NCBI GenBank assembly: GCA_963709585.1
Contig: CAVPXI010000013.1
Location: forward strand, 32,001 to 96,000
DNA length: 64,000 bases
Origin: Candidatus Dormiibacterota bacterium
GTDB lineage: Bacteria; Chloroflexota; Dormibacteria; Aeolococcales; Aeolococcaceae
Direction of reading: 5' to 3'
In this document: piece by piece, positions 15,531 through 38,695 of the stretch
Layout: the number at the start of each line of letters is the position of its first letter
Numbering within the stretch: position 1 is the stretch's first letter
Program-made: the position numbers and the translations under genes
The notes under the pieces: model-generated
What the model was told of the DNA's origin: nothing
Database searches by the model: none
The model's input: the letters and a program-made list of their open reading frames with translations, nothing else

Positions 15531-15534
15531 CGAT

Positions 15535-21580: not shown

Positions 21581-21995
21581 CTAATCGCCAGGTCGGAGGC
21601 CTGTCAAGAGGCGTTGGTCCCGACTTATCATCACGCCTGCCGTGTCGCGCCGCGATGGCTGGCCCGCTCCGCACGCCCTCGACCGGCTGCGCCAGCTGCG
21701 GCAATGCAGCGGCATCCTCACCGAGACACCGATTGGGCTCCGCAAACGAGGGCCTTCGTACTCATCCAAGCCTCCGGCGGCCACGCCGTCGCGCGTGCCT
21801 GACCTGCCGCTGTCCCGCACATTACGAGCCAGTAATGTCCGAGCGGCAGCGGGGACGATGTCGGCCGGATCCGCCGTCGCAACCGGGGATGACTTCAGCT
21901 CTCCAACGACCTCGGCATCCACGCGCTTGCCGATGAAGTCCGTGGCCGAAATGATGCCGACGAGGGCTCCGTCGATCCCGATCACCGGCATGGCG
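21581..21995 (-). pseudogene. 3' half of an interrupted CBS-domain gene
   Basis: AMPVIGIDGALVGIISATDF...ELKSSPVATADP..AARTLLARNVR; joins in frame with 38695-38537. Confidence 0.75.
21977..21995 (+). repeat. 19-bp direct repeat, left copy (CCCGATCACCGGCATGGCG)
   Basis: Identical to 38537-38555. Confidence 0.9.
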
Positions 21996-21998
21996 ACC

Positions 21999-23282
21999 TC
22001 ACACGCCCTTTGGCGCCGACGCAAAACGTGACTGTGCTTCGCGGAGCGGGTCGGGGATGCGGCCGCCGAGTCGAAGCAGGACGGCTCCGGCCACCACCGC
22101 GGCAAGCGCGCCACCCCACCAGACGGCGTCTGGCGAGGTCTGCAGGAGCAGGCCACCAATCGCCGGGCCGAGGGCCAGGGAGATGCTGAAGGTCAGGCTG
22201 TAGACAGACAGGTAGCGGCCGAGCAGATGGGCTGGGGCCATGTCCGCGACCAGTGGCCCGAGAACGACAATGTGTACGCATTCACCGATTGCGAAGACGA
22301 TCGCAACGCCGGCGAGGAGACTGGTCGCAGCGAGCTCCGAGTGGATGAGCGTCGCTGGCAGCACCGCGAGCAGGCTGACCGCAAAAAGCGCGCTGGCCGC
22401 CGCGAAGGCGTGTGTGCGTTCCATCCGTGCCACGACGCGCACTGCCGGGATCTGCGCGATGACGACGAAGCACGTGTTGACGAGGACGAGGATCCCGATC
22501 GCGGCGGGGCCGAGCGATGTGTGGGTCTTTGCAAATGGCGGCAGGATGTTGGAGAAGAACGTGTGGCCGACGACGACGAGCACGATATTGGCTGCGATCA
22601 CAGTGAGGAACAGCCGATCTCGAGCGACGGCGCGAAAGCCGGTTCCGTTGGCGTCTGTCACTGTGACGGTCTCGGCTCGCGGGTTCGGTACGGCAGCGAG
22701 CACGATCAGCGCGAATCCGGCGTAGGTGACGGCGTCGAAGAAATAGAGCGTTTGGAACGAGCTGAGCTGCTGTGCGGATGCGATGACGAAGCCGGCTGCG
22801 GTCGCGCCGGCGCCGAGACCGAAGTTGCCCGCGACGCGATTGAGCGCGAAGGCTGCCGCTCGCTGATCGCGCTTGACCAACCTGATGGTCAATTGCCGGT
22901 TGGCCGTCCCTGCCGCGCCGATTCCGGCTCCGCTGACAATCGAGCAGGCAAAGGCCTGCCAGGGACGGTCTACGTAGGCGAAGCCGGCGTAGCCTAGGGC
23001 GCTCGCCAGGCTTCCTGCGACCACGATCGCTTTAGCGGAGTGCCGGTCGAGCAGCGCTCCCGTCGGCAGGGTGGCGATTGCGGCTGTCCCCATGGTCGCC
23101 GCGAGAACCAGTCCGGCTATTGACGTCGAAAAGCCACGTATCTGGTGCAGATAGATGATCTCAAAGGGAAGAATGAGCCCGTAACCGAAGTAGTTGAGGG
23201 CGTTTCCCGCTTGAAGAATGAGCACGGGGCGAGAGAGCCCGGTGCGCCAACCCGCGATGAAGTGTGAGACGCCGCGGTTCAT
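21999..23282 (-). CDS. MFS transporter
   Basis: About 12 TMs; GALLDRHSAK motif A; APAHLLGRY. Confidence 0.9.
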   Translation of the reverse strand: MNRGVSHFIAGWRTGLSRPVLILQAGNALNYFGYGLILPFEIIYLHQIRGFSTSIAGLVLAATMGTAAIATLPTGALLDRHSAKAIVVAGSLASALGYAGFAYVDRPWQAFACSIVSGAGIGAAGTANRQLTIRLVKRDQRAAAFALNRVAGNFGLGAGATAAGFVIASAQQLSSFQTLYFFDAVTYAGFALIVLAAVPNPRAETVTVTDANGTGFRAVARDRLFLTVIAANIVLVVVGHTFFSNILPPFAKTHTSLGPAAIGILVLVNTCFVVIAQIPAVRVVARMERTHAFAAASALFAVSLLAVLPATLIHSELAATSLLAGVAIVFAIGECVHIVVLGPLVADMAPAHLLGRYLSVYSLTFSISLALGPAIGGLLLQTSPDAVWWGGALAAVVAGAVLLRLGGRIPDPLREAQSRFASAPKGV

Positions 23283-23361
23283 CCGCCTATAGGCCTCGCC
23301 GCGGGCCGAATCGCCGCGACGGGAAGCGCCTCAGGCACTGCCGCCGCGATACCGTTAACTC

Positions 23362-24297
23362 ATGCGGCCGACGGTACGAGGCGCCGATGCTGACCGTCTT
23401 GAACGATCCTGCGGCCGACGCTCGGACTCGATCAGGTTCGGACCTGGCGCTTACGGCGTCGAGCGCGCAGAGGTCTACATCTCGACGCGCGGCTTCGATC
23501 CGCACCGGCACGGCACTTACGGGATCGGCGTCACGACGGCCGGCGTGCAGGTATTTCGTTACCGCGGCTCGCAACGTGTCTGCCTGCCCGGTCAGCTGCA
23601 CGTCCTGCATCCCGACGAGACGCACGACGGCGGCCCGGGAACCGAGGACGGCTTCGGTTACCGGATCCTCTACATCGCGCCCGAGCTCGTCCGGGGCGCC
23701 CTAGGTGGTCGCGCGCTACCGTTCGTCGCCGATCCCGTCCAGGAGCCGAAGCCGACGGCTCGACCCATCGTTGCCCTGCTCGCCGACATCGACGACCCGA
23801 TCAGCGAGCTGAGCTGCGCCGAGATCGCGGTGGCGGTCGCCGACTGCCTCCTGTCGCTCGGTGACTGCCCCGACCGCCACCGAGCCACGGTCGACATCAG
23901 GGCAGTCGAGCTCGTACGCGAGTATCTCGCGGCCCATGCACGGGAGCAGACGCCGGCGTCGACTCTCGAAAAGATCGCGGGCACCGACCGCTTCACGATC
24001 ACCCGCCACTTCCGATGGGCGTTCGGGACAAGCCCCGACCGCTACCGGACGCTGCGCCGCCTGGCGCTCGCGCAAGCCGCGATCGAGAGCGGGCAGTCAC
24101 TCGCGCAAGTCGCTGCCGAGGCGGGTTTCGCCGACCAGAGCCACATGACGCGACACTTCAAGCGGACCTACGGATTGACGCCGACCCGGTGGAGGGCCCT
24201 CACAGCCGCCTCGTCGACTGAACGTCTCGAGACCAATGGCCACCTGCCACAGTCGCGGTCTTTGCGGCTAACGTCCGCCGAGAGTCGCGCGATTTAG
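23362..24297 (+). CDS. AraC-family transcriptional regulator
   Basis: Cupin FDPHRHGTY..LHPDETHDG; C-terminal HTH AAEAGFADQSHMTRHFKRTYGLTP. Confidence 0.92.
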   Translation: MRPTVRGADADRLERSCGRRSDSIRFGPGAYGVERAEVYISTRGFDPHRHGTYGIGVTTAGVQVFRYRGSQRVCLPGQLHVLHPDETHDGGPGTEDGFGYRILYIAPELVRGALGGRALPFVADPVQEPKPTARPIVALLADIDDPISELSCAEIAVAVADCLLSLGDCPDRHRATVDIRAVELVREYLAAHAREQTPASTLEKIAGTDRFTITRHFRWAFGTSPDRYRTLRRLALAQAAIESGQSLAQVAAEAGFADQSHMTRHFKRTYGLTPTRWRALTAASSTERLETNGHLPQSRSLRLTSAESRAI

Positions 24298-24401
24298 AGT
24301 GGTTTTGCAGGAAAGAACATCAATCAGGGAATGAGTACTAGTCCCTGCAAAGTGACCGATCCCCGCAAGTTGGAATCCACTACAGCGCAATGGTCTGCGA
24401 A

Positions 24402-24520
24402 TCGGGGAGACAGGACTCGAACCTGCGACCCCTGGTCCCCCAGACTAGTACTCATTTCCCGATGAGTGCTGAGTTCGATTTAGAGTGGTTTTGTGGGGAA
24501 TTGGTTGGAATGACGACTAG
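24402..24520 (-). repeat. att-like repeat copy 1: tRNA-Pro(GGG) 3' half plus conserved 72-bp segment
   Basis: Minus strand CTAGT-CTGGGGG-ACCAG-GGGTC-GCAGG-TTCGAGT-CCTGT-CTCCCCGA (anticodon arm, T-arm, acceptor 3' strand); no D-arm or 5' acceptor strand. Confidence 0.88.
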
Positions 24521-24668
24521 AGCGCGTGTGATGGAATCCGCTGGAATCGCCGAGAATCCCTCAGCGCTCTTCGACAGAGACCATCGCCTATCCCCTTGAG
24601 CCTCCAGCCTTTCCCAGGACGGATCACCGCTTAGCAAACGTGTCAGTCAAACCGGGGCACGCCCCCTG

Positions 24669-24739
24669 GCCCTGACCACCTTCCACCCGCCCTCATGCAA
24701 CCAGTGATGACGGTGGCAGAGGAGTACCAGGTTAGCCAG
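24669..24739 (-). pseudogene. C-terminal remnant of an HNH endonuclease (DUF222/13E12-like)
   Basis: Translates LANLVLLCHRHHWLHEGGWKVVR; similar DNA at 34751-34825. Confidence 0.7.
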
Positions 24740-24960
24740 CATCGCCCTCATACGCCGTAGATGGCGATGTGCTTCGCCTGCATAACACCAACCAACAACT
24801 CTCCCGCTCTCAGGTCGAGGATGCGGCGAGAAGGAAGGGCATCGCCAGCCCGTTCGATCTCCGCAACCTCAGGGGAAGCTCATAGTTGTCGCTTGCACTC
24901 TGCCAGCTGCTCGAAGCTGGGTTCGCGTTTGCACTGTCCCGAATGCTCTGAGCGGGGGGG

Positions 24961-25629
24961 TCACGACAGACGGCGTTCCGTGGCCCAGCGCGTGAGCTGA
25001 TGCCGCGTCGAGAGCTGGAGCTTGCGCAGCACCGACGAGACGTGGCTCTCCACCGTCTTCGCGGAGATGAACAGCTCCCGGGCGATTTCCTTGTACGTGA
25101 AACCGCGCGCGATGAGACGGAGAACCTCGCGTTCGCGGGGTGTCAGCTGGTCGAGCTCGGAGTCGAACGACGGTCGCTCCTGATCGGCGGCGGGCAATGC
25201 CGCGAAGGCGTCGAGCACGAAACCGGCGAGCCGCGGCGAGAAGACCGCCTCACCATCGGCCACCCGGTACACCGCATCGACGAGGTCGGCGCCGGAAATC
25301 GTCTTGGTCACGTAGCCGCGCGCGCCGGCGCGGATGATGGCGATCACATCCTCAGGCGCGTCCGACGCGGAGAGCGCGAGGAAACGGACCTGCGGGTTGG
25401 AGGCCTTCAGTGCGGTCACCACGGCGTGCCCGCCGCCCCCTGGGAGATGCACGTCGAGCACGACCACGTCAGGTTCGCTCTGCGCGATCGCTGTGATAGC
25501 CGGTTCAACGTCGTCCGCCTCGCCGATCACCTCCACCTGGTCGCCGAGCTCGGCGCGTACGCCCGATCGGAACAGGCCGTGGTCGTCGACGATGAAGACA
25601 CGGGGCCGGCGGCCACGCGAGACGCTCAC
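24961..25629 (-). CDS. LuxR-family response regulator (PspC-associated)
   Basis: VDDHGLFRSGVRAEL, DVHLP, HTH GFTYKEIARELFISAKTVESHVS. Confidence 0.93.
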   Translation of the reverse strand: MSVSRGRRPRVFIVDDHGLFRSGVRAELGDQVEVIGEADDVEPAITAIAQSEPDVVVLDVHLPGGGGHAVVTALKASNPQVRFLALSASDAPEDVIAIIRAGARGYVTKTISGADLVDAVYRVADGEAVFSPRLAGFVLDAFAALPAADQERPSFDSELDQLTPREREVLRLIARGFTYKEIARELFISAKTVESHVSSVLRKLQLSTRHQLTRWATERRLS

Positions 25630-26885
25630 GCAGGCGCCGGCTGGCTCACCGCGGCTGAGCGGGGCATCGATAAGCGGACCTCGGTGCCCTCGCCGGGAGC
25701 GCTCCGAACCTCAGCGCTGCCGCCACGGCGGAGCATCCTGGCGTGGACAGACTCGGACAAGCCCTTGCGGTCCGCGGAGACTGCGGCTGGATCGAACCCT
25801 CGGCCGCGGTCGCGGATGAACACAGACACCTGGCCCGCCTCCACCTCGGCGTAGAGCGAGATGGCCCGCGCCTCGGACCACTTCGCCGCGTTGACCGTCG
25901 CCTCGCGAGCGGCGGCGAGCAGCGCCTTGAGGTCGTCATCGAGCGGGCAGTCCCCGACGCTCACCACTTCGACGGCGACCCCGTGTTGAGCCTCGACGTC
26001 GCTCTGGATCAGGCGCACACCGGCAGCGAACGTGGTGTCAGAGGCGATCGATCCGGGCGCGCGCCCGTCGAAGAGCCAGGAGCGCAATTCGCGCTCCTGG
26101 GCACGCGCAAGCTGGATCACCTGTTGGGGTTCGGTGGCCCGGCGCTGGATCAGCGCGAGTGTCTGGAGCACCGAGTCGTGGGCGCGCGACGCCATGTCAG
26201 CGCGTTCCTCGGCGCGGATACGGGCCTGACGCTCGGCGACGAGCTCACGCCCGACGCGCAACCACCATGGTCCCAGGACGACCACGATCGCGGCGATGAC
26301 CAATGCCACGCCGGCGAGCGGACGGAGCAGTGCCGTCGTCGTGTGCCCGATCAGCAACGTGGTCACGCCGGCAATCAGCAGGACAGCCGCAATCAGCGCG
26401 CGGAGCGCGATTCGCGAGCGGCGCGTGTCACCGGTAAAGCCGATCAAGGGATCGGCAAGACGCCGCAAGGTCATCTGCTCGTAGGCGGGAGCGTTTCTCG
26501 AGATCAGGACAATCGCGATGACGCTGATCACGAATGACCAGGCGAGCGAGCCGATCCACCCGGCGCCGACCAGCGACAACAGCACGAAGAGCGCCGTGAC
26601 CAGCGATGCGAGCCCCGCGGCGAGGGTGATCCCGGTGCGGTCGGCCAGCGCCGCGCTGCCGATGCTAGTCCGCTCCCCTATCGCCGGAATGAGCAGCCAG
26701 GCCGCCAGATAGCAGGCGATCCCGAAGCCTCCGGCCAACGCGAGGACCACGAAGACCGTCCGCACGATCGTGACATCGACTCCGATCCTCGCCGAGACGC
26801 CGGCAGCGACGCCACCGAGACGGCGCTGTTCGGGGAGGCGACGCCAGGAGCCTTTCCGTCGCTTGGCCTGGGTCTGCTCCGCCAT
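25626..26885 (-). CDS. PspC-domain sensor histidine kinase
   Basis: N-terminal PspC (RRLGGVAAG), TMs, H-box AHDSVLQTL, RDRGRGF. Confidence 0.9.
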   Translation of the reverse strand: MAEQTQAKRRKGSWRRLPEQRRLGGVAAGVSARIGVDVTIVRTVFVVLALAGGFGIACYLAAWLLIPAIGERTSIGSAALADRTGITLAAGLASLVTALFVLLSLVGAGWIGSLAWSFVISVIAIVLISRNAPAYEQMTLRRLADPLIGFTGDTRRSRIALRALIAAVLLIAGVTTLLIGHTTTALLRPLAGVALVIAAIVVVLGPWWLRVGRELVAERQARIRAEERADMASRAHDSVLQTLALIQRRATEPQQVIQLARAQERELRSWLFDGRAPGSIASDTTFAAGVRLIQSDVEAQHGVAVEVVSVGDCPLDDDLKALLAAAREATVNAAKWSEARAISLYAEVEAGQVSVFIRDRGRGFDPAAVSADRKGLSESVHARMLRRGGSAEVRSAPGEGTEVRLSMPRSAAVSQPAPA

Positions 26886-26920
26886 GTCCCCATCATGGGC
26901 CTCGCCAGCCTACGGGACCA

Positions 26921-26970
26921 TCGGGGAAGACCCTGAAGCGCTGACGGGCGTCTCAGGGTTGAATCCGGGA
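26921..26970. promoter_or_regulatory. putative response-regulator binding sites between kinase and pspC
   Basis: Imperfect palindrome TCGGGGAAGACCCTGA and TCAGGG..TCCGGGA in the divergent intergenic region. Confidence 0.4.
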
Positions 26971-27014
26971 TCCCACGGATTGTTCTGTAGCACCGGCGGC
27001 TCTACGGTGGGGTC

Positions 27015-27275
27015 ATGAACACACCCACCTCGACCCAGCGCCACCTCCACCGCCCCACCGACGATCGGATGATCGCGGGCGTCGCCGCCGGCATTGCCGA
27101 GTACTTCGATGTTGATGTCACGATCGTCCGGATCGCGATCGCGGTCTTCTCGGTGTTCGGCGGCGCGGGCATCGCTCTGTACATCGCCGGCTGGCTGCTG
27201 ATGCCGACTGAGGGCTCGGATCGGTCCATCGCGAACAAGCTCACCCGGACAGCCCGGCACTGCACGCAGTCATGA
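27015..27275 (+). CDS. PspC domain-containing protein
   Basis: LHRPTDDRMIAGVAAGIAEYFDVDVTIVR...LYIAGWLLMP. Confidence 0.9.
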   Translation: MNTPTSTQRHLHRPTDDRMIAGVAAGIAEYFDVDVTIVRIAIAVFSVFGGAGIALYIAGWLLMPTEGSDRSIANKLTRTARHCTQS

Positions 27276-27402
27276 GCGCGTGATCCCACCACCGGTGACC
27301 CTATCCCCACTGCGGCTCCTACCCTGACTTGTGGAACTGCTGGACCCCGCTCAGCGCTGCCCGACGATGGTGATCCTCGCGAGAACGCAAATTGCACGTC
27401 CG

Positions 27403-27521
27403 TCGGGGAGACAGGACTCGAACCTGCGACCCCTGGTCCCCCAGACTAGTACTCATTTCCCGATGAGTGCTGAGTTCGATTTAGATTGCTTTTGTCGGGA
27501 ATTGGTTGGAATGACGACTAG
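27403..27521 (-). repeat. att-like repeat copy 2: tRNA-Pro(GGG) 3' half plus conserved segment
   Basis: Near-identical to 24402-24520, offset 3001 bp. Confidence 0.88.
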
Positions 27522-27849
27522 CGCGCATATTGGAATCAAGTGGAATCGCATCGACATCCGGAGGGGCTGGCCGCCGTAGCCCGTGGCTCCACTTCCCGGC
27601 CACCTCGCGACTTTGGGCATTCTGGTCGCCGTGGTAACGATCCGAGCCCTGAGCAACTGTTCCCCACATCATGGTGGTCCGTCTCATCGGGTCAAGCCCG
27701 GCGGATAGGCGCCCGACACTATCCGTCACGCTGGCTTAGCGCGCCAGCCTCGACCCGCAGCTCGCATCGCTACGGGGCGATTGCGCTCCCAATGGTCGAC
27801 TGACCCGGCCTATGTGGACGGTGTGGGCAGTCGCCCCAGCGGTGACCTC

Positions 27850-28742
27850 CTAATGTCCGCTGGCCGGGCTGTTCTTCCGCGCGACCTCTGTTCTGGCGGA
27901 GTGCCAGAGCGTGCGGCCGTTGGCCCAAGCGGGATACAGCTCGACCATGCGAGCGACGATGCTGGCCACGGTGGTCTCGTCTGCCGCGATTCGGGAGAAG
28001 TCCCGCAGATATTGCTGGGATTCCCCGATGATCTTCGGGTCGTTGGTGTTCTCGACTTTCTTGTGGCCGGCGACGACGATGTGCGGTTCGAGCGCGGCGA
28101 CCCTGTCTAGGTTGGAGATCCACTCAGCACGCTCGGGTTCACCGGCCTCGGCGGTCATCATGTGGACCTCGTTGTAGGCCAGATCCCCGGTGACGACAGC
28201 GGCGACCGACGGAACATGGAGCACGGTGGAGTCGGCGGTATCGGCTCGACCGATCCGGATGACCCGCAGCTCGTTGCCCTCCAGGTCGATCGTGTCCGTG
28301 GTCAACGGTTGGGGCAACACCTTCTTCGTTCCGATCGGCACCTCGCCGGGGAAGATGGCCTCCCAGTACCCGGCGATGCCAGGGTTTGCCGACTGAGCGA
28401 CAACTTCAGCCGTCGCAAGGCCTACTGCTCCCGGAAAGCGCTGGGTCGGTCGCGCCAGACCGAGCCAGTGGTCGCCATGGCCGCGGGCAATGTAGATGCG
28501 CGACAGCTTCCGCCCCTTCGTGTCGATCCAGTCCGCCAGAGCGTCGACCTGCCCATAGGTGGCCAGCGCGTCGACGAGGATCGCGTCGCGGTCGCCGTAG
28601 TCAGCGTCGCTGAAGACGGGGACCAAGTCGGCTCATCACCCGGCCCTTGGGGCGCGATTGCGCTCACAAACGTTCGGCCCGGGGCCGTGTACACCTCAAT
28701 CCTGAGTTGCGTTGGGACGTGCTCAGCAGCCACAGATGCCAT
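27850..28742 (-). CDS. MBL-fold metallo-hydrolase (frameshift near 28601; first metal motif degenerate)
   Basis: WSPSSATL/YGDRDAILVD, IYIARGHGDHWLG, VTGDLAYN, VVAGH. Confidence 0.82.
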
Positions 28743-28874
28743 GGTTTCCGCCTCTCAAAACGGGCTCGAAACGGGCTCGATTGAAGAGGACGGTCGTCAT
28801 CCTCACGTCGAAGGAGGATGACGGATACAATCTTCTTTTGTCAAGCAACGACGGGAGCGGTTGGAGGATTCAGC

Positions 28875-29453
28875 GTGGGGACGTCTCAAGCAGCGAAGGC
28901 TGCGAGCCATGACCGCATCCTCGACATCGCCGCGGCGCGGATCCGCCGCGATGGCGTGGACAACCTGTCGGTCGACGAGCTCATGAAGGAAGCGGGGCTC
29001 ACCCACGGGGGCTTCTACCGTCACTTTGAGTCACGCGACCAACTCGTCGCCGAGGCAGCGCAGCGAGCTCTCACGCAGGGGAGCGCCTGGACCATCGCTG
29101 CCGCTCGACGCGGCGGACGGCGTGCATACGTCTCGCTCGTCGACGGTTATCTGAGCGTGCAGCATCGAGATCATCCTGAGGACGGCTGCGGCCTGGCCGG
29201 CGTCGCCGCAGACGTGGCGCGTGCGGGAGGCCCGGCGCGCGCGAGCTACACCCGCCAAGTCGAGATCTGCCTCGACGCCCTCGCTAACCTCCTCGATACC
29301 CCCGACCGCCAGGTCGATGAACGCGAAGCCGTCCTCACCCTCAGTGTCCTGGTCGGCGCCATCTCCATGGCTCGGGCCGTCGACGACCCCGACCTGTCCC
29401 AACAGATACTGACCCACGCCGCAGCCGCGTTGAAAGAACGAACCCCAAACTAG
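28875..29453 (+). CDS. TetR-family transcriptional regulator
   Basis: SVDELMKEAGLTHGGFYRHFESRD; GGAGG RBS; divergent from the MBL gene. Confidence 0.92.
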   Translation: MGTSQAAKAASHDRILDIAAARIRRDGVDNLSVDELMKEAGLTHGGFYRHFESRDQLVAEAAQRALTQGSAWTIAAARRGGRRAYVSLVDGYLSVQHRDHPEDGCGLAGVAADVARAGGPARASYTRQVEICLDALANLLDTPDRQVDEREAVLTLSVLVGAISMARAVDDPDLSQQILTHAAAALKERTPN

Positions 29454-29471
29454 GGGACTTGGTGCTCGATT

Positions 29472-29875
29472 GATGCTTCTCTTGTTTGTCAAGCCGCTGC
29501 GGCGAGTGCGGCTCGAGGTATGAGCTCGCGATACATCTCGCGAGCGACGTAGCGCTTGAGGCACCGGATGATCTCCGGTTTGGACATGCCCACCTGGGTG
29601 CGCCGAGCCGTGTAGTTCCTCGTCGGCGCATCGGCGGCGAAGCGCACGATGACGACACGCCAGAGTGCGCAGTTGGCGTACCGATCGCCGCCACGGTTGA
29701 GCCGATGGCGACCGGTGGACTTGCCGGACGACGCCAGCAGCGGGGCCCCGCCACAAAGATTCGCAAACGCACCCTCTGGTCGAAGTCGCTCCGGGTTGTC
29801 GCCCTGCGGCTACGAGTACGGCACCAGCGACGTCGGTGCCGACACCCTTGAGCGCGCAGAGTGTCGGTGCAGCCT
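29472..29875 (-). mobile_element. IS110-family transposase C-terminal remnant with right end
   Basis: GVGTDVAG..GDNPERLR.EGAFANLCG.APLLASSGKS.GRHRLNRGGDRYAN.AL...CLKRYVARE*, followed by TTGACAAACAAGAGAAGCATC; N-terminal DEDD domain absent. Confidence 0.85.
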
Positions 29876-29901
29876 CCCAATCGAGCGCAGAACCCTACGC
29901 G

Positions 29902-30225
29902 TCAGGTCAGTGGCCACACCTCGATAACACCGTGTGCGACCGCACAAGGGCTATTGGCGGCAAGGCTGATCGCCTCCTCGACCGTGGCGGCCTCGATAAC
30001 CCCGAACCCGGCGATCGGTAAGTCCGACCGCATAAACGGTCCCTCGCTTGTCTCTACGCCCGCCCCGTCGTGGTTGCGCACCTGCACCGGCTGCCCCGCG
30101 ATACCCATCAACGCTCCTGCCGCGACTAGGCGCATGTCGTGTTGATGGGCCGCATCGCGGATTGCGGGGTCAGTCTGGTCGTAGCCTGCCCGACCTCCAT
30201 ATCCGATAGTCACGAATCTCGGCAC
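29902..30225 (-). CDS. YciI-family protein
   Basis: EGPFMRSDLPIAGFGVIEAATVEEAI..PCAVAHGVIEVWP; GAGGAGG RBS. Confidence 0.85.
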   Translation of the reverse strand: MPRFVTIGYGGRAGYDQTDPAIRDAAHQHDMRLVAAGALMGIAGQPVQVRNHDGAGVETSEGPFMRSDLPIAGFGVIEAATVEEAISLAANSPCAVAHGVIEVWPLT

Positions 30226-30510
30226 GTACCGTACCTCCTCACTTCATTTGGCGCAGTATGCGCCGGATCACTGGGTCGGTCAGTTTGAGCAAAGTGGTGA
30301 ACCGGACTCGAACCGCTTTCCGTAAAGCGCTTCGCCTTCGCTCCCTTTGTTCGTCACAGCCGTTTTCCCGAACTCTTCTCCTTCATGTTGGGGTAACTGC
30401 TGTGTGCTCGACCGACTTAACGTGTGCGTCAACGCAGGCGAGGTCCACAATCCCGCAGAGGAGAATCAGATGCTCCACCTAGCCCCACATCATCATGGTG
30501 CTGAGGAAGA

Positions 30511-30924
30511 GTGAAGACCCTGCACACGGCGCTCCGCGTCACCAACCTGCCTGCCTCGGTCCGGTTCTATACAACGCTCGGGTACAGCGAAGTTGGCCGC
30601 GTCGACAGCGGTGACGGTGAAACGCTAACCCTCCTTAGGTTTCCGGCGGAGGAGGTCGCGACACTCGAGCTTGTCCACCGGGCTGCCGAGAACCCGGTAG
30701 AGATCGGTACCGGGTTCCACCACCTCGTCGTGCAGGTAGACGACCTCGGCGCCACCGTCGACGTGCTTTCGCGCGCGGGCATGGAAACCGGGCCGATGGA
30801 GCGTCCCGGGGGCCCGGACGGCCCACGGACGTCATGGCTGACGGACCCCGACGGGTATCGGATCGAACTTGTGCAATGGCCGCCTGGACATCCCAGCGGG
30901 ATTACCGTTGCCGACTTCCCTTAA
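30511..30924 (+). CDS. VOC/glyoxalase family protein
   Basis: LHTALRV..SVRFY, GFHHLVVQVDD, TDPDGYRIELV. Confidence 0.92.
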   Translation: MKTLHTALRVTNLPASVRFYTTLGYSEVGRVDSGDGETLTLLRFPAEEVATLELVHRAAENPVEIGTGFHHLVVQVDDLGATVDVLSRAGMETGPMERPGGPDGPRTSWLTDPDGYRIELVQWPPGHPSGITVADFP

Positions 30925-31368
30925 GGGGCCTGGCCGGCGGCAAAAGGCGCGTGAGAGCTGGCGGAGTCCCTGTCTTAATTCCGTTCCAGTTGGGCGGATG
31001 CGCCTTTCTGGGTGCTGCGCACCGCGGAGCCGACGCGTTGCGGCTTGGTTGAGGGCAAGCCAATGATCGCTGTCGCCGAATCCCTTCCGTGACGGTCACG
31101 GTTGGTATCCGGCCTCCTCCGTCGTCAACTCCAGCTTGCTGGGCGAGATCGGAGGCCGATCGCTCAACAGGTGTCGGATTCGGGTCGAACGAGGCGCCCG
31201 ATCGATCCGGTTCGCTGTCGAAGGACCCGAAGCGAACGGCGTCGGCCACGCTCGAACCGGCAACAATCGGGATGAGCCCTGAGCGCAGCGCTGCGCTCGA
31301 TCGTCACGTCAACGAACTCATCACCAACACGGTCCTGAGCGTCGCGGGCCGCGACACTCGGGCTACCC

Positions 31369-33103
31369 ATGGGAAGGCGCCCCTTTCGTCTGCTCGTCGC
31401 GGCGGTGGTCATTGTGGGAGGCGTCAACGGCGTGATGCTCGTCGTGGCACCGGTACTGCGACAGACGATCGTGGTCGACGACTTCTCCGAGACCCTGTCG
31501 GCACTCCTGGCGGCGACCGCCTGCCTCATCACCGCGGCTCGAGGCCGGGGTCGCACCAGGCAGGCTTGGGGGCTGATCGGCGTCGCTGCAGGCTTGTGGG
31601 GTCTCGGCCAGGCGGCCTGGACCTACCAGGAAGTCTTTCTCCACCTGGCCCCAGCGACCCTCTTTCCCTCGTTTCCGGATCTGGGCTACCTGCTCTCGGT
31701 ACCGTTCGCGATCGCCGGCCTGCTCCGTCTCCCCGGAGCCGCCACCACCAACGAGGCGCGGATGCGTACGGTGCTCGATGGCGTGTTGATCGCCGGCGGA
31801 TTGCTATTCATCAGCTGGGACGTTGTGCTCGGACCCGTGTACGCGTCGTCCTCAACAGACACCTTTGCGCAGATCGTCGGTCTCGCCTACCCGATCAGCG
31901 ATATCGCGATGGTGACCATCGTGGTGCTCACGCTGTCGCGCCTGCATGCCGGACAGCGACTGCCGCTCGTCCTGCTTGCGTTTGGCGTCCTGCTCAATGC
32001 TGTGGCCGACAGCTCGTTCGCCTTCCTCACGACCCTCCAGAGCTACACGTCGGTGAACTTCCCCGATCTCGGCTGGACGATGGGCTATGCGCTCATCGGC
32101 CTCGCCGCGGTGGGCGCGCTGAGTACCTCAGCACATACCGGGGACGAGGCCATCCGGCAACCGCGGTGGACTCTGATGCTGCCGTATCTCACCGTCGCCG
32201 CCGCCGGCATCGCAGCCGTAGTGACCGAGTTCATCGCCGGGTCGCTCAACCGGGTGCTGGAATGGGATCTCATCCTCACCATCACCGTTGTGCTCGCAAG
32301 GCAGTATCTATACGCCCGTGAGACCCGCTCATTGAACGAACAGGTCGCGCGCAAGAACGAGGACCTTGATCTGAAGGTTGACGAGCGCACCCGGGCGCTC
32401 GTCGAGAGCCTCGAGGACCTCCACCGCTCCAACGATGAACGCACCAAGCTCCTCCTCCGGCTTGTGACCGTTCAGGAGCAGGAGCGGCAGCACATGGCCG
32501 GCATCATCCACGACGACATGCTGCAGTCGATGATCGCTGCGAAGATGCGAATGTTCCTGTTACACGGGAACGACGGGGTCGAGGACGCGACCGCTGCGTC
32601 GATCGAAGTCTTCTATCGAGGGAGCAATCGTGCGCATGCGCACGATGCTGAGCGATCTCCATCCGCACATCCTCGAACTCGGCCTGCGTGCGGCGGTAGA
32701 ACAGTCGATCTCAGAGTTCAACGACGACGAGAACCTTGTGGTGGTTCTCACGAATGAGCTCACTGGGGATCCATCCCCGATCGTGGCCACAACGCTGTAC
32801 CGCATCATCCGCGAGGCGCTCACGAATGCAAGCAAGCACGCGCGCGGCGCGTCCGTCACGGTGTTCCTGAACGGTGATCAGGGCAGCGGCTTCGGTGCAC
32901 GCATCAGCGACAACGGCCCTGGATTCGCGCCTCGAACCGACAAGAGGTCCCCGCAGGGTCACCTCGGGCTAAGCTCCATGCATGAGCGTGCGGAGGCGCT
33001 TGGCGGGTGGGTACACCTCGACAGCGCCGAAGGAGCAGGCACTGCCATTGAGGTATGGCTGCCTCAGAAGCTGAAGTCCGTCGTTGAGATGCCTGCGGCA
33101 TGA
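31369..33103 (+). CDS. multi-TM sensor histidine kinase (frameshift near 32612)
   Basis: About 10 TMs, H-box QEQERQHMAGIIHDDMLQ; ATPase REALTNASKH, SDNGPGF, GHLGLSSM in the next frame. Confidence 0.85.
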
Positions 33104-33166
33104 CGTTTTCGTGACGAGTCGGCCCCCGGCGGTGTAAGGCGGCGCCGGCGTCCAGAGTGAGCGGCA

Positions 33167-33562
33167 ATGAACGGCACGCGACTTCGTGTGATCATCGTGG
33201 ACGACAGCGGGGAAGTGCTCTCAGCTCTCGGACGGATCATCGACAAGCAGGTTGATCTCGAGCTGATCGGGGTTGCGTCCAGCGTCGATGACGGCGTCCT
33301 TTTGGTGCGTCAGCTGCAGCCGGACGTGGTCGTCCTTGACGTCAACATGCCCGACGGCGGCGGCCTCAGAGCCGCAAAGGAGATGGTTGTCGTGGCGCCT
33401 GCCGCCCGCCTGATCGCCTTCTCCGCGTTCGACAAGACGCTAATTCGTAGGGCGATGACTGTCGCCGGCGTTTCCGCATACATATCCAAGTCGGGTGACA
33501 TCCGCGAACTTCTCGACGCAATCCGCGTCGGGCGGGATGTCGACGCGTTCACACCCCGCTGA
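33167..33562 (+). CDS. stand-alone response regulator receiver protein
   Basis: IIVDD, DVVVLDVNMP, AYISK; no output domain. Confidence 0.88.
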   Translation: MNGTRLRVIIVDDSGEVLSALGRIIDKQVDLELIGVASSVDDGVLLVRQLQPDVVVLDVNMPDGGGLRAAKEMVVVAPAARLIAFSAFDKTLIRRAMTVAGVSAYISKSGDIRELLDAIRVGRDVDAFTPR

Positions 33563-33597
33563 GGGCGCGCATCCAGTCGCCACGGTCGGTGCCTGAT

Positions 33598-33622
33598 GGC
33601 GACAGGACTCGAACCTGCGACC
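33598..33622 (-). repeat. short tRNA T-arm fragment matching the att-like repeat core
   Basis: GACAGGACTCGAACCTGCGACC identical to the core of the four repeats. Confidence 0.6.
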
Positions 33623-33929
33623 GTTGATGAGCAGCCCCCGGTGTCATAGAGACTGCGGTCACTTAGTCCCAACGACCGACAGCTGAGAGTCGAGGCGGCC
33701 AGCGCCGCCGAGATGTCAGTCTGCGTCGTTGCCGAGGGCCCCAGCCGTGGAGCTGTCCCGGTCCATCGTGCTGACAGACGTATCCAGCCTCTAGAACGGT
33801 TCGAGCATCCCGCGGACGCTGCCGATCTCGTGTTGAACCGCGACCAAGTCGATCTCTTCGCGGGCTACGTTGGCGATTGCTCCAGCGCCCGTCACACTGG
33901 CCAGATAGAGCGCACAGATGACCGCGGTC

Positions 33930-34126
33930 CAAAACTGTAAGCGCTATGTAGGCGCTTGACTGCCACAATCTCTTGCTATGAGCAGCGGCATCCAGCCTCA
34001 ACCATCGGGATTGATGCCTTTTGCAGGAAAAGTGATCATTCCTGGTTAGAGCACTACACGACGTGGGCGCGCAGGCGCCCAAACAAACTGCGCAACCTCT
34101 CGTTGCGAACTCAAGTCGGACGTCCG
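33930..34126 (+). repeat. extended flank shared by att-like copies 3 and 4
   Basis: CAAAACTGTAAGCGCTATGTA...GACTGCCACAATCTCTTGCTATGAGCAGCGGCATCC...TTTTGCAGGAAAAGT..TCATTCCTGGTTAGAGCACTACAC recurs at 58333-58528. Confidence 0.85.
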
Positions 34127-34245
34127 TCGGGGAGACAGGACTCGAACCTGCGACCCCTGGTCCCCCAGACTAGTCCTCACTTCCTTGATAATGCTGAGTT
34201 CGATTTAGAGTGCTTTCGTCGGGAAATGGTTGGAATGACGACTAG
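34127..34245 (-). repeat. att-like repeat copy 3: tRNA-Pro(GGG) 3' half plus conserved segment
   Basis: tRNA part identical to the other copies; non-tRNA part more diverged. Confidence 0.88.
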
Positions 34246-34429
34246 AGCGCCTAATGGAATCCGTTGGACTAGCGTCGACATCCACAGAGGTTTATTGAGC
34301 GTACCCCATCTCCCCTCTTCCCCGATTGTTCTTGTACCTCGAACTGGGCCGCATCGTAACGGGGCCACCAAGGGCGCATGGGATGACCATCTGCGGCTCC
34401 GTTTATTCGATTCGACCCTCCCCGGCTCC

Positions 34430-34476
34430 TGGAGCGGAAGACGGGGCTCGAACGCGCAATTTCAACCTTGGGAAGG
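34430..34476 (-). repeat. degenerate tRNA-Gly(CCC) 3' half
   Basis: Minus strand CCTTCCCAAGGTTGAAATTGCGCGTTCGAGCCCCGTCTTCCGCTCCA: anticodon CCC, GTTCGAG T-loop, ends in CCA. Confidence 0.65.
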
Positions 34477-34750
34477 GGGCGGTCCGTTTTTGTATTCAGC
34501 TGCGCCCGACAGACCGCTCAGGATGTCTATCCACCCCCATTTTCGAGCGCGATCACATGGCCTTCGCCAGTCACCATCGGCCAATCAAGTGGGAGTGGAC
34601 GGCAGCCATCTCAATACTCGATTGCTCCGGTCCTCCACCCTACAGTCCGCCGAGTTCAACCACCCGCTCACTGTGCGCTCGTCAAGTAGCTCTCCGACGT
34701 TGTGAGCACTCCACCGCTCATGTCCGCCAAACCGGGGCAGGCTCGCCTCA

Positions 34751-34825
34751 GCCCTGACCACCTTCAACCCGCCCCTCATCCACCGACCAGTTATGACGGT
34801 TGCAGAGGAGTACCAGGTTGTCCAG
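34751..34825 (-). pseudogene. second HNH (DUF222/13E12-like) C-terminal remnant
   Basis: LDNLVLLCNRHNWSVDEG/GLKVVR; homologous to 24669-24739. Confidence 0.65.
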
Positions 34826-34862
34826 GTGTCGTCCGACGAGATGAATGACGAGTTGATGCCCT

Positions 34863-35290
34863 CTACGAGACAGCGGCAAGACACGTGGACTGCGCCTCAC
34901 TCGGCGCCACCGCCGCTCGAATCGAGACGGCAGGCGGTGACTGCAGCGAGTTATGCACGGTGCAATGGCCGATCGCTCGACGGACTGCTTCGACGCGAGA
35001 CTCAGTTGTGGTCGAAGGCAGGTGTACCTCGATGGCGATGCTGGCGACGCGCCAGGGTGGCGCTCGCTCATCGTCCACGTGCAACGCACCGTCGGCCTCT
35101 CCCCTCCGGAGCCCAAACCGCGGCGGGCGTAATGGGCGACGCACGACGCCAGGGATGCGACGAAGAGATCGATGGGGGTCGGACCAGCATCATCGCCTCC
35201 AAACTCTCGGGGCTGGTCGACGATCACTTCATGACCGCGCACCGTGATCCGGTGGCGGTCACCGCCGAGGCTGACCACTGTCAGTTCCAT
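34863..35290 (-). CDS. OsmC-family protein (frameshift near 35070)
   Basis: DQPREFGGDDAGPTPIDLFVASLASC and C-terminal CTVHNSL in another frame. Confidence 0.85.
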
Positions 35291-35297
35291 GGCTGCT

Positions 35298-35822
35298 TTA
35301 GGTGAAGATGATCTGGCCGCCGGCGGCCTTCTCGTAGAACTCGCCCACGGTGATGATGTCCTGCACCTGGGGGATGAAATCGTCCTTGGTGAGTCCGAAC
35401 AAGTCGACGGACGCCTTGCACGCATATAGGCCAGCGCCGGTGTCGGCGATCATCTCGACGAACTCTGGGATGGACGGAATATCGAGCTTCTCCATCTTGG
35501 AGGCCAGGTAGTGGGTCATCACACTCGACATGCCCGGAACACCCCCAAGCCAGGTGGAGAGATGCAATCCCGGGTTCCCCACGGTCGCGATCTTGATGTG
35601 CTCGTGACGCGCCTTGTGGACGGCATCGAGCCCGAAGAAGGTGAAGAACAGATTTGCCTCGATCCCCTCGGCGCGCGCCCCGTTGGCCATGATCAAGCCC
35701 GGGTAGACCCCGTCAAGGGATCCCTTGGAGATGATGATCGACACCTTCTCGACGGTCGCCGGCATGAATGCCCTTGGCGCCACCGTCGGTGCCGCGGTTG
35801 GTTCGACCGTCAGGGTGGTCAT
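35298..35822 (-). CDS. DsrE/DsrF/DrsH-like sulfur relay protein
   Basis: IIISKGSLD, LFFTFFGL, LYACKAS, GGQIIFT. Confidence 0.9.
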   Translation of the reverse strand: MTTLTVEPTAAPTVAPRAFMPATVEKVSIIISKGSLDGVYPGLIMANGARAEGIEANLFFTFFGLDAVHKARHEHIKIATVGNPGLHLSTWLGGVPGMSSVMTHYLASKMEKLDIPSIPEFVEMIADTGAGLYACKASVDLFGLTKDDFIPQVQDIITVGEFYEKAAGGQIIFT

Positions 35823-35837
35823 GTCAGATCCTCCTCG

Positions 35838-36155
35838 TCAGATGCAGCCGCGTGGCTTGGGGATACCGGCAATCCGTGCGGCCACCTTTGCCGGGCCCTT
35901 GGGGAACAGTTCGTAAAGCTCTTTGATGGAAACGCCAGATGCTTTGCCCAACACGCGCACGGTCGGTCCGGTCCCCTTCTCCAGGTACTCACTCCGCATG
36001 AAGCGGATGACCTGCCAATGACGGTCGGTGAGGTAGCTGATGCCTTCCTGCGCAGCGAGCGCGGGGACCATGGCGTCGCTCCACTGTGATGGGTCAAGAA
36101 AGAAACCTTCATCGTTGCGAGCGACGTCGGCGAACTCGACGGTTGCGACGTTCAT
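35838..36155 (-). CDS. tusE: TusE/DsrC-family sulfur relay protein (single C-terminal Cys)
   Basis: DEGFFLDPSQW, LTDRHWQVIRFMR, LFPKGPAKVAARIAGIPKPRGCI. Confidence 0.88.
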   Translation of the reverse strand: MNVATVEFADVARNDEGFFLDPSQWSDAMVPALAAQEGISYLTDRHWQVIRFMRSEYLEKGTGPTVRVLGKASGVSIKELYELFPKGPAKVAARIAGIPKPRGCI

Positions 36156-36166
36156 GCTGCTTCCTC

Positions 36167-37420
36167 TCAATGCGTTCCCGCGGGAACCTTGTGTTTGCCG
36201 GCGGTCGGCATGTCCGATGCGATGCCGGGGATGGAATGACCCGGTAGCAGCGCGTGCCAGTAGAACCACTGGAACATCAGCTTGCCGAGGTGGTTGAGGT
36301 GCGACTCTTTCAGGAGCGGCAGGCCGATGCGGTCAGGAAAGTGACCGGGCAACGGTTCGGTGTCGTAGTTGAAGTCGATGAGCACCGCCTTGCCGAAGCC
36401 TGTCTCGATGAAACAGTTGGCATGGCCGTCGTAGCTCGCGTCAAGCGATTCCCCTTCGAGGAATCTCCGGATGTTCTCGGTGAGCACTTCGCCCTCGAAG
36501 TGCGTGACGGATCCTGCTTTCGATATCGGCAGCCCGGCCGCATCACCGATGGCGAAGACATTCGGCGCAGCCTTGGATTGCAGCGTGTGCGGATCGGTGG
36601 GTATGAAGTTGAGCTCGTCGCCCAGTCCTGGGGACCGCCCGACAAGATCGGCGCCACCGTGGAGTGGCACGACCACGCCCAGATCGAATGGCACCTCGCG
36701 CCCGTCGTATGCAACCAGCTTCCCCCTTGTGGCGTCGACGCTCCCGGTGTTGAACTCGGTGACGACCTCGATGTTCTTCTGCGCCAGGAGTTCGCCGAGC
36801 TGTCGTGAGGCCACTGGCTTGGTGAAGGCACCGTCGAGCGGAGTCACATACGTCAGCGTGACGTCGTCGCGGACGCCCTTCTCGCGGAAGAACCAATCGG
36901 AGAGGAAGCAGAACTCCAGCGGCGCCACTGGGCATTTGATGGGCATGTCGACGACGTTCACAACGATCCGGCCGGCCTTGAAGTTCGCGAGCGCGGGCGC
37001 AAGCGCGCGCGCTCCGTCGAGCGAATAGAACGTGAAAACGTTCTGTTCCCACCCGGGCCCGGCGAGTCCCTCAGTCTCACTGGGCATCAGCACCGCGCCC
37101 GTCGCGATGACGAGGACGTCGTAACGCTCACTGGTTCCATCCTCGAAATGCACCACATTCGCGCCGAGGTCAACGCTCTCGATGGTGGCTTGGAGGTAGC
37201 GGACCCCTGCATGCAACTGATCGCCCCGGGATCGCACCAGTTCCTCTGCCTGAGCCAACCCAAAGGGGACAAAGAGCAAACCAGGCTGATACACGTGGGC
37301 GTCGTTCCCATCGACCACCGTGATATCTGTCGATCGCGGCAGCACCCGGCGCAAGCGGTTCGCGGTGATCGTTCCACCGGTGCCGCCACCGAGAATGAGA
37401 ACGTGCTTTTGGTCATTCAT
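36167..37420 (-). CDS. sqr: sulfide:quinone oxidoreductase (type III-like)
   Basis: ILGGGTGG, HVYQPGLLF, IKCPVAPLE, FAIGDA, YDGHANCFIE. Confidence 0.88.
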   Translation of the reverse strand: MNDQKHVLILGGGTGGTITANRLRRVLPRSTDITVVDGNDAHVYQPGLLFVPFGLAQAEELVRSRGDQLHAGVRYLQATIESVDLGANVVHFEDGTSERYDVLVIATGAVLMPSETEGLAGPGWEQNVFTFYSLDGARALAPALANFKAGRIVVNVVDMPIKCPVAPLEFCFLSDWFFREKGVRDDVTLTYVTPLDGAFTKPVASRQLGELLAQKNIEVVTEFNTGSVDATRGKLVAYDGREVPFDLGVVVPLHGGADLVGRSPGLGDELNFIPTDPHTLQSKAAPNVFAIGDAAGLPISKAGSVTHFEGEVLTENIRRFLEGESLDASYDGHANCFIETGFGKAVLIDFNYDTEPLPGHFPDRIGLPLLKESHLNHLGKLMFQWFYWHALLPGHSIPGIASDMPTAGKHKVPAGTH

Positions 37421-37457
37421 CGCAGCCCCAGGATGGCACCTGGTGCGATCGTCAGCC

Positions 37458-37496
37458 AGGGTCCAATCGCATCGGTTTCGTGTGACCTTGGACCCT
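37458..37496. promoter_or_regulatory. tandem DosR/DevR-like boxes
   Basis: AGGGTCCAATCGCAT (37458) and GTGACCTTGGACCCT (37482) upstream of sqr. Confidence 0.55.
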
Positions 37497-37618
37497 TCTC
37501 GCGTCCGAACTTGACGTAGCAAGAGAATCGCCCTGAGCTCGGCAAGGCTGAGGTTGCCAATACCAACGCACTGAAGAGGGTCCCGGGGTACCGTCGCACT
37601 CCGAAGTGGGACGTTAAG

Positions 37619-38275
37619 TCAGTTGACGTGTTCGATCGAGTGCCGTTTCGCCGCGATCCAGGTGAAGGGTTGAACCGCGCCACCGGGTGTGACGTGCTCC
37701 TCGCGGCTCAACTCAGCCACTTTGAAGCCGTCGAGGAGGCGTTGGAGGTCGGTGGCGTCATAGCGCGACACAGGGAGCCCGGAGCAGTGGTCCGGTCCGT
37801 CGGCAGCGAACGTGGCCATGATCAGCGCCCCGTCGTCGCTGATCGCCTGACGCATCACATCCAGATACCTCGCCCGCTCCGCGGTATCGGTGAGAAAGTG
37901 AAACACCGCGCGGTCGTGCCACAGGCCATATCGGCGTTCCGGCTGCCAGGACAGGATGTCCTCGCGAAGCCAGCGCACCGGAGCGGCGTCACCGAGCCGG
38001 TATCGAGCAAGCTCAAGCGCCGTCGACGACACGTCGAGGACAGACACGTCGGTGTAGCCCCGAGCCAGGAGCTCGTCTACGAGGAGGGAGGCGCCGCCGC
38101 CGACGTCGACAATCGGCGCTGTCTTCGGCACGCCGAGACGGTCGATGAGAGTCAGAGACATCGCCGGTTCGCGCTGATACCAACTGACCCGGGTCGCTCC
38201 TGCGTCGGCGTAGCGCCGGTCCCAATGTCGACGTCGCGATATGGAGCGCGCCCACTCAAAAGGCATAGACGACAA
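37619..38275 (-). CDS. class I SAM-dependent methyltransferase
   Basis: HWDRRY..VSWYQ, IVDVGGGAS, WHDRAVFHFL, CSGLPV. Confidence 0.9.
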   Translation of the reverse strand: MSSMPFEWARSISRRRHWDRRYADAGATRVSWYQREPAMSLTLIDRLGVPKTAPIVDVGGGASLLVDELLARGYTDVSVLDVSSTALELARYRLGDAAPVRWLREDILSWQPERRYGLWHDRAVFHFLTDTAERARYLDVMRQAISDDGALIMATFAADGPDHCSGLPVSRYDATDLQRLLDGFKVAELSREEHVTPGGAVQPFTWIAAKRHSIEHVN

Positions 38276-38536
38276 AGTCTGCCCCCGCGCAGTGGACGAG
38301 TGATCCTTCAGCGGTGCAACCGCTTACACCTGTATTGGGCGCTCGACGCAGCTGCTCGGTTTTCATCGAAACACCTGAATTGCAATCAACCGCGCGGAGC
38401 TTGCTTTAGCTCGGAGGTCACCTGCCGGTCGGATAGGCCGCCAAGAAGATCGTCGCTTCTTTGCAGTCGCGCGGCCATCGGTACGCGCGGCACCGGGTTC
38501 TCGATGGGAGGACAAGAACGTCCCCCGCTCCTAGCA

Positions 38537-38555
38537 CCCGATCACCGGCATGGCG
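38537..38555 (+). repeat. 19-bp direct repeat, right copy
   Basis: Identical to 21977-21995. Confidence 0.9.
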
Positions 38556-38695
38556 CTGATCCGCTCCCGGCTCATCACGCGGGCTGCTTCCTTGATGCGT
38601 GTCGACGTCGAAACCGTAACCGGATTGCGGGTCATGACCTCGGTCACTGTGACATGCCGGGTCGGGTCCTCGGCTGGACCAGCGCGTTCGGTCAC
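38537..38695 (-). pseudogene. 5' half of the interrupted CBS-domain gene
   Basis: GTG overlaps the USP-remnant stop; VTEVMTRNPVTVSTSTRIKEAARVMSRERISAMPVIG, then an abrupt stop. Confidence 0.78.

Follow-up and report, generated by a model that had tools for sequence, protein, structure and literature searches.

The window analysed here is a stretch of 64,000 nucleotides (nt) on contig C13 (212 kb) of G000, as we call the assembly that holds it. It contains the relic of a stress-response gene coding for a CBS-domain protein, which is split by a 16.5-kb insert lying between two copies of a 19-bp direct repeat. The insertion is real rather than an artefact of chimeric assembly; 19 bp of its target were duplicated, and the insertion predates the split between the window's strain and a closely related soil strain. 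This follows from the colinearity of the two gene pieces with unsplit orthologs, from the arrangement of the locus in the relative G002, from an unsplit metagenome locus (L141) and from contigs of soil metagenomes that bridge the junctions. The locus is the scar of an insertion within a flexible island anchored at a tRNA; it is no working switch.

The repeat, CCCGATCACCGGCATGGCG, is exact at positions 21977-21995 and 38537-38555 and has two copies in the 3.52-Mb assembly, the next-nearest match, on contig C6, having two mismatches. A perfect repeat and an in-frame split of a CBS gene had been proposed from the letters of the window before any database was searched (the sequence-only reading), and both were borne out. 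When 21996-38555 is removed in silico, a minus-strand frame of 555 nt opens, and the joined frame is colinear with the orthologs as far as residue 104. The N-terminal piece runs from a GTG at 38695-38693 to ...RISAMPVIG and then ends with C and a stop, two codons inside the insert; on the minus strand, the C-terminal piece begins AMPVIGIDGALVGII. Since the former (38537-38695) matches positions 1-36 of the Pfam CBS profile with 38 bits and the latter (21815-21997) positions 32-53 with 24 bits, the break falls within the first CBS domain and the duplicated AMPVIG forms the overlap. A single exact pair of 19-mers is near chance on a GC-rich contig of 212 kb, and C13 also has two isolated exact repeat pairs, of 19 and 17 nt. 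Shuffle controls of the repeat are therefore not our main argument, and it is the colinearity with the orthologs that gives the pair its meaning.

When the intact G002 protein was used to search 42 genomes of the genus, full-length and unsplit orthologs were found in nine genomes (65-100% identity), none of which carries a comparable insert, and two separate CBS pieces were found only in G000. Both pieces are colinear with these nine orthologs and overlap at AMPVIG in the alignment. As regards G002, the DNA match of the right flank and the protein match of the left flank abut (C7:73191 and C7:73189 of that genome), and together the two halves make up a single gene of 205 aa, with a tandem-USP gene on one side and a single USP gene on the other. 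When metagenome contigs were scanned for the 19-mer, at least 120 stretches came up. Among the 80 loci that were fetched, L141 alone is related, the rest representing other genes or frames, and there was no sign of recurrent insertion at the 19-mer. In L141, 13 nt of the left flank run directly into one copy of the 19-mer and on into 21 nt of the right flank, with identities of 32/32 and 37/40. This 107-kb contig carries, at 1488-1540, a 54-nt CBS relic behind an intact tandem-USP gene, with the insertion site unsplit; its CBS gene has decayed independently.

Next to the relatives stand contigs (Logan) of four public soil runs from two studies (X1-X4), which were compared with 20500-39900 and belong to a strain 97-98% identical to the window. 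Among the matches listed, they bridge the right junction in all four runs and the left one in two of the four. Empty sites were seen in other species only. Neither an empty-site joint (21995 to 38556) nor a circle joint occurs among the X1-X4 matches listed, contigs being prone to drop rare variants, and no site recombinase was found; the suggestion that the segment might still be excisable is therefore not upheld, although contigs speak only weakly on this point. Joints between att-like sites in soil contigs, which go back from 33575 to 27397 or skip, were not read as circles, their sides comprising only 21-36 nt inside repeats, and a 23-nt match in genome G026 was dismissed as chance.

The split gene had lost more than its continuity. 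The orthologs are CBS-CBS-BON proteins of 200-205 aa (Pfam). In the alignment with them, the CBS homology of the window ends at LLARNV, at about 21815, and no trace of residues 103-205 was found in any frame, whether close to the two junctions or in the rest of G000. What the window retains is the first CBS domain, in two parts, and half of the second, instead of the CBS-pair-plus-BON architecture. The restored frame had been taken for a recognisable CBS pair; this holds for the identity of the two pieces and fails for the missing 3' half. The latter is replaced by an orphan stretch without homolog in G000, in 30 relatives or in the fetched loci, and the frame from about 21815 down to 21581 has no similarity to a CBS C-terminus. 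That this frame stops right beside the ATG of the next USP gene had been regarded as the mark of a USP-CBS-USP operon. The stop is instead the chance end of a GC-rich tail, and the downstream USP gene has its own upstream region, which extends only to about 21625: its DNA matches in G009, G012, G015 and G010 (78-93%) span just 20939-21625, and these four genomes have different genes upstream of the USP ortholog.

At the other end, the overlap of the GTG with the stop of the upstream USP remnant is genuine, and the identical 4-nt overlap is present in G002. This remnant corresponds to the last 80-95 residues of a tandem USP, a protein of 313-330 aa in relatives, and matches the tandem USP of G002 and G053 and also that of L141. 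Further breakpoints, at about 21815 and 38980, carry no signature, and the soil strain has an additional 100-nt deletion at 21803-21902. With the CBS 3' half deleted, the tandem USP truncated and the downstream USP separate, the clean operon that had been reconstructed falls away; all that is left of the operon is about 0.6 kb in two parts, and the CBS gene is dead. Because deletions have removed the 3' half of this gene and the greater part of the upstream USP gene, taking out the insert would not restore a working gene. The idea of a regulatory switch was dropped since even precise excision returns no working gene.

The insert was characterised by Pfam scans that covered all long frames and, in the gaps, each stop-to-stop frame of at least 45 aa (Table 1). 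It consists of cargo, including two two-component pairs, and its G+C content is similar to that of the flanks. Neither these scans nor six-frame searches of the whole genome gave a match to PF00589, PF00239 or PF01548 in the insert, nor was DEDD_Tnp_IS110 matched there; on the whole of C13, the six-frame searches found no tyrosine integrase (PF00589) and no resolvase (PF00239), the 11 PF00589 matches of G000 all lying elsewhere. The sole transposase trace is a Transposase_20 remnant of the IS110 family, 7.5 kb from the nearest end, while full IS110 copies are present on the same contig outside the window. Inverted repeats between the insert ends are lacking, all scores being within those of shuffled controls. 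Thus the sequence-only reading was correct in describing a segment without integrase or terminal inverted repeats in which an internal IS110 remnant is the only transposase trace. The left end lies 3 nt past the stop codon of the MFS transporter gene, which leaves no room for an att arm. For the right end (38276-38536), G000, the 30 relatives and the fetched loci contain no homolog, and no second copy of the cargo that could have served as a source was found in G000, where only the att-like repeats recur. Compared with contigs of up to four soil runs, the window shows consistent indels of 1-2 nt at 31315, 31591-31594, 31758-31762, 32608, 34460, 35062, 37611 and 39869. The one at 32608 falls on the frame break of the sensor kinase and the one at 35062 within the two-frame OsmC gene; these frame-breaking indels are either real pseudogene lesions or errors of assembly.

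Table 1. Features of the split CBS locus, its insert and the tRNA-Pro att-like sites, in positions of the window
Feature	Position	Strand	Remarks	Basis
Intact USP gene	20969-21580	-	203 aa	Pfam Usp, 96 bits
Orphan stretch replacing the deleted CBS 3' half	21626-21814		189 nt; open frame through it to 21581 is not CBS	
CBS relic piece 2	21815-21995	-	residues ~48-104: end of CBS1 and first half of CBS2	alignment, Pfam
Left repeat copy	21977-21995		duplicated target; minus strand codes AMPVIG	exact match
Inserted segment	21996-38536		16,541 bp, cargo only	
MFS transporter	21999-23282	-		Pfam
AraC	23362-24297	+		Pfam
att-like site r24	24264-24565	-	P arm, 52-nt tRNA-Pro(GGG) 3' part, type-B P' arm	
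LuxR response regulator	24961-25629	-		Pfam
PspC-histidine kinase	25626-26885	-		Pfam
PspC	26991-27272	+		Pfam
att-like site r27	27375-27567	-		
Metallo-beta-lactamase fold protein	27850-28626	-		Pfam
TetR	28818-29453	+		Pfam
IS110-family remnant	29492-29809	-	Transposase_20 only	PF02371, 37 bits
YCII	29902-30225	-		Pfam
Glyoxalase	30511-30924	+		Pfam
Sensor kinase	31369-33103	+	two frames (31369-32757 and 32630-33103)	Pfam
Response regulator	33167-33562	+		Pfam
att-like site r33	33578-33622	-	core only, arms not conserved	
att-like site r34	33930-34290	-	P arm, core, type-A P' arm	
OsmC	34751-35449	-	two frames	Pfam
DsrE	35298-35822	-		Pfam
DsrC/TusE	35838-36269	-		Pfam
Pyridine-nucleotide disulphide oxidoreductase (flavoprotein)	36167-37522	-		Pfam
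Methyltransferase	37619-38275	-		Pfam
Right repeat copy	38537-38555			exact match
CBS relic piece 1	38537-38695	-	residues 1-53: first two thirds of CBS domain 1	translation, Pfam, alignment
Tandem-USP C-terminal remnant	38692-38980	-	truncated at ~38980	Pfam Usp profile 80-141 only
Fifth att-like site, outside the insert	58333-58686	-		

The surroundings of the CBS scar are more notable than the scar, since a contig of about 200 kb consists almost entirely of cassettes and the array holds no integrase. The window sits in the middle of a stack of such cassettes behind a tRNA-Pro(GGG) gene. Its att-like sites had been counted as four with three inside the insert; there are five, four of them inside, and the fifth shows that the sites of the insert are part of the host array and are oriented like it. 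Each of the four inner repeats copies the last 52 nt of tRNA-Pro(GGG) and, except for r33, whose arms are not conserved, stands between a conserved P arm of about 110 nt and a P' arm that is either of type A, non-coding and about 205 nt long, or of type B. The 22-nt core has 19 exact copies in the assembly, all on the minus strand, 14 of them on C13 (15 kb-211.5 kb) and 5 on C14, in addition to diverged copies. Two of the 19 belong to true tRNA-Pro(GGG) genes, at C13 c[211509-211583] and C14 c[71628-71703], each heading its series. Nearly every junction of the array retains the conserved P arm and one of the two P' arms. Like its ortholog in the complete genome G045, which has an att copy on either side, the CBS relic is part of the cargo of the stack.

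Across the genus, the number of exact cores per genome ranges from 0 to 19, and 40 of the 42 genomes have at least one. G045 codes for a tyrosine integrase of 332 aa (PF00589) that starts about 130 nt behind a core, and its orthologs (87-89% identity) are found as a single copy in 8 of the 42 genomes, each about 130-150 nt behind a core. An integrase of this type is absent from G000, where the best match is 31% identical, in an assembly that is 88.8% complete. The 16.5-kb insert is not bounded by att sites of the array and ends in the 19-mer, and a comparison of the target site and the insert ends with the tRNA-Pro att sites gave no similarity above shuffled controls. As the ends bear no resemblance to att, the tRNA-Pro system acting on a secondary site is not the origin of the insert. 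The assembly contains two versions of the tRNA-Pro(GGG) locus, one at C13:194800-198826 together with C13:211509-212147, the other at C14:67600-71703: the 4 kb behind the C14 tRNA are 98.3% identical to C13:194.8-198.8 kb, and the 609 nt ahead of the two tRNAs are 86% identical. They reflect either a mixture of strains or species in the bin or a real duplication, and this affects the count of sites per genome.

The leftmost module of the insert, MFS-AraC, recurs at 90-96% identity in G007, G016, G008, G001, G011, G003 and G009. In relatives it occupies three other contexts, its outer breakpoints being spread over about 45 nt, at 21995/6 (G007, G016), ~21997 (G008), ~22018 (G001) and ~22040 (G011, G003). 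The neighbour of the module in G016 and G007, joined via a 42-nt linker, is a homolog of C14:296616-299281 of G000, and the flank of the module in these two genomes has the short microhomology TGGC(A)G in common with the target. Similarity of the 19-mer to the linker stayed within shuffles. In G008, the context changes within about 3 nt of the G000 junction, and no repeat of 11 nt or longer flanks the module.

Inside the insert, the soil strain departs from the window. Its outer junctions are unchanged, while depth drops to 0-3, against about 10, over 25029-31278, with almost no depth over the att-bounded stretches 24566-27382 and 27567-31278 and with the end modules present. The stretches of low depth hold the LuxR regulator, the PspC-kinase and PspC in one case and the metallo-beta-lactamase fold protein, TetR, the IS110 remnant, YCII and glyoxalase in the other. 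One contig of this strain leaves the window sequence at 31278, for 7.2 kb. These results indicate that cassettes have been gained or lost at att-like sites since the insertion; as the soil strain keeps the outer junctions and loses depth between them, inner cassettes were exchanged after the insert had arrived. The two fixed junctions thereby provide a dated marker that brackets att-bounded cassettes exchanged between strains 2-3% apart, and give a direct view of the rate of turnover in a tRNA-anchored cassette array.

How the segment arrived had been left between site-specific and microhomology recombination. The insertion of cargo without a recombinase, and the 19-bp duplication, are real; the route stays open, and we lean, with a confidence somewhat short of even, towards a one-off capture of island DNA, independent of a recombinase, that duplicated the target and is now frozen. 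Such a single, unprogrammed insertion would have needed no catalysis by an element-encoded recombinase. Island DNA might have been captured by end joining at a staggered break, Ku being encoded at C6:277941-278489 (138.7 bits), or template-switch repair might have copied DNA in and resumed 19 nt upstream; both routes would duplicate the target. Thereafter, inner cassettes would have turned over by recombination between the tRNA-Pro att-like sites, the outer junctions staying fixed. The orientation that the inner att sites share with the host array fits an origin of the DNA in the same island, which it favours only about twofold. Since there is no recombinase, no inverted ends, no third copy of the 19-mer and no occupied ortholog site, the insert is not autonomous. 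Insertion by microhomology or end joining is known to be able to leave a short target duplication, and the lack of recombinase and defined ends, the uniqueness of the event, the junction microhomology, the patchwork surroundings and the presence of Ku all resemble such illegitimate events.

Several points weigh against this capture. Bacterial end joining does not usually leave a clean duplication of 19 bp around 16.5 kb of DNA, and we know of no routine source of a staggered break of exactly 19 nt. The flanking repeat would also be expected from an att core, and its length is typical of such cores. A donor locus was not found in G000, in the 30 relatives or in the fetched loci, and microhomology at the right junction is unreadable; that at the left junction, of 4-5 nt, is weak and presupposes a donor like G016. 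The break in G008, so close to the G000 junction, could mean a preferred end. Finally, with the assembly at 88.8% completeness, a recombinase could lie in unassembled DNA.

Less likely, yet not far-fetched, is the integration of a circular element whose attP carried a 19-bp core equal to the CBS gene sequence, by a tyrosine or serine recombinase that has since been lost or that acted in trans. The 19-bp repeats would then be attL and attR. The duplication is precise and in frame as well as of suitable length, the island is full of remains of integrative elements, the left end of the insert lies about 3 nt from the context change in G008, and the genome has PF00589 proteins away from C13; the turnover of inner content from strain to strain could have removed an integrase together with inner cassettes. 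Against this, neither a recombinase nor a remnant of one is left in the insert, and the ends have neither inverted nor arm-type repeats (binding motifs of unknown type could escape), with the MFS stop codon 3 nt from the repeat. Moreover, the 19-mer is not found beside the MFS module in G007, G016 or G008, the last of which has no flanking repeat at all, none of the nine orthologs is occupied, a third 19-mer is missing from the genome, and the listed matches of the four runs, which are contigs only, offer no empty-site or circle joint. Cis-mobilizable elements (CIMEs), which arise by decay of integrative and conjugative elements, keep attL and attR, lack an integrase and can be moved in trans. 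In contrast to the situation with them, neither G000 nor the 42 genomes of the genus yielded a cognate element or an integrase for the 19-bp site.

A bolder version of this integration, which we consider improbable, would make the repeats attL and attR of a recombinase-less element that is mobilised in trans and targets the conserved stretch coding for AMPVIG in CBS-domain genes. tRNA-Pro cassettes could then move away from the tRNA and start a new stack within a gene, and, in a wider view, the genus would have an integron-like platform on which one conserved tyrosine integrase, present in 8 of 42 genomes, serves dozens of integrase-less cassettes.

Movement of a composite or non-autonomous transposon in trans, with an unusually long target-site duplication, is very unlikely. 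A flanking direct repeat of the target is what marks staggered cleavage, IS1634/IS1549-type elements and casposons make duplications of 14 bp or longer, and IS110-family sequences occur both inside the insert, as a remnant, and as full copies on the contig. However, unlike a transposon or composite insertion sequence (IS), the segment has neither terminal inverted repeats nor a transposase at or near its ends, the remnant lies far inside, the insert is a mosaic of tRNA-Pro cassettes, and to our knowledge IS110-family elements make no such duplication.

Scarcely credible is the absence of any insertion, that is, two tandem CBS loci each truncated by deletion with an accidental 19-bp overlap. 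Deletion breakpoints are numerous in the region and the genus does have CBS paralogs (40-48% identity), but the two pieces align with a single ortholog set rather than with a paralog, no relative has two close copies, L141 has the ancestral sequence contiguous, the overlap is exact, and by our own estimate just a few per cent of random pairs of deletions should give one of this size. An assembly chimera at one or both boundaries has a virtually negligible chance: the assembly is of metagenome type, in 24 contigs, incomplete and with two versions of the tRNA-Pro locus, but the junctions are crossed by the independent soil contigs of two studies described above, and a 19-bp repeat is shorter than the usual word sizes of assemblers.

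Multi-kb elements seated in genes between direct repeats of 5-21 bp are well known, such as skin in sigK, SPbeta in spsM and the nifD, fdxN and hupL elements of Anabaena; they carry a recombinase near one end, and their excision restores a working gene. The segment described here resembles them in being of multi-kb size, in interrupting a coding gene between short direct repeats and in leaving a frame that can be rejoined. It differs from them in that no recombinase was found and that the rejoined gene still lacks its 3' half.

The array has its closest parallels in tandem islands formed at tRNA genes by tyrosine integrases. Among the integrative and conjugative elements of actinomycetes (AICEs), the parts of the account in PMC2440964 used here describe pSAM2 at tRNA-Pro and att sites shared between tandem elements. 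As in these tandems, copies of the tRNA-Pro(GGG) 3' part follow a true tRNA gene in the same orientation, and in relatives a tyrosine integrase lies about 130 nt behind a core. Unlike in the tandems covered by those parts, the array is very long, with its 19 exact cores, and its contig C13 has no integrase; the 16.5-kb segment neither ends in att sites nor lies in a tRNA gene, and the replication and transfer genes typical of AICEs were not seen in the window by the Pfam scans. Successive integrations at one tRNA, leaving partial tRNAs between cargo units, characterise the tycheposons of Prochlorococcus in the portion of 10.1101/2020.12.28.424599 considered. Both features recur here, together with degenerate remnants throughout the island and niche-adaptive cargo. 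The host group differs, both att arms are kept here at nearly every junction, and most units have no integrase remnant; that portion of the tycheposon description holds no parallel for the CBS insertion. The array represents the known pattern of tandem integration at a tRNA, but with unusual length and units that almost all lack an integrase. If the cassettes move in trans, it would be a large, actinobacterial-style counterpart of an integron, with the integrase in only a fifth of the relatives.

Beyond the split locus, the island cargo of the window at 1-20000 and 41000-64000 resembles a set for dormancy or hypoxia. The window holds USP genes at 3867-4424, 17718-18803 and 20969-21580, a LuxR response regulator at 7382-8089, and a GAF sensor kinase in one frame with a GNAT/ADP-forming acyl-CoA synthetase region at 8520-12389. 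Its cargo also includes a NiFe hydrogenase large subunit with its protease, malic enzyme, HtrA, PspC/LiaF, G6PD, 6PGD and two P-type ATPases, one of them with a hemerythrin tail. Outside the window, at C13:102712-110880 and C13:165686-185086, the exact repeats of the contig include a further family of short ones, in which words like GGGGTCTCCCGCGCGAGTAC and TTTCTCTTATCGG occur.

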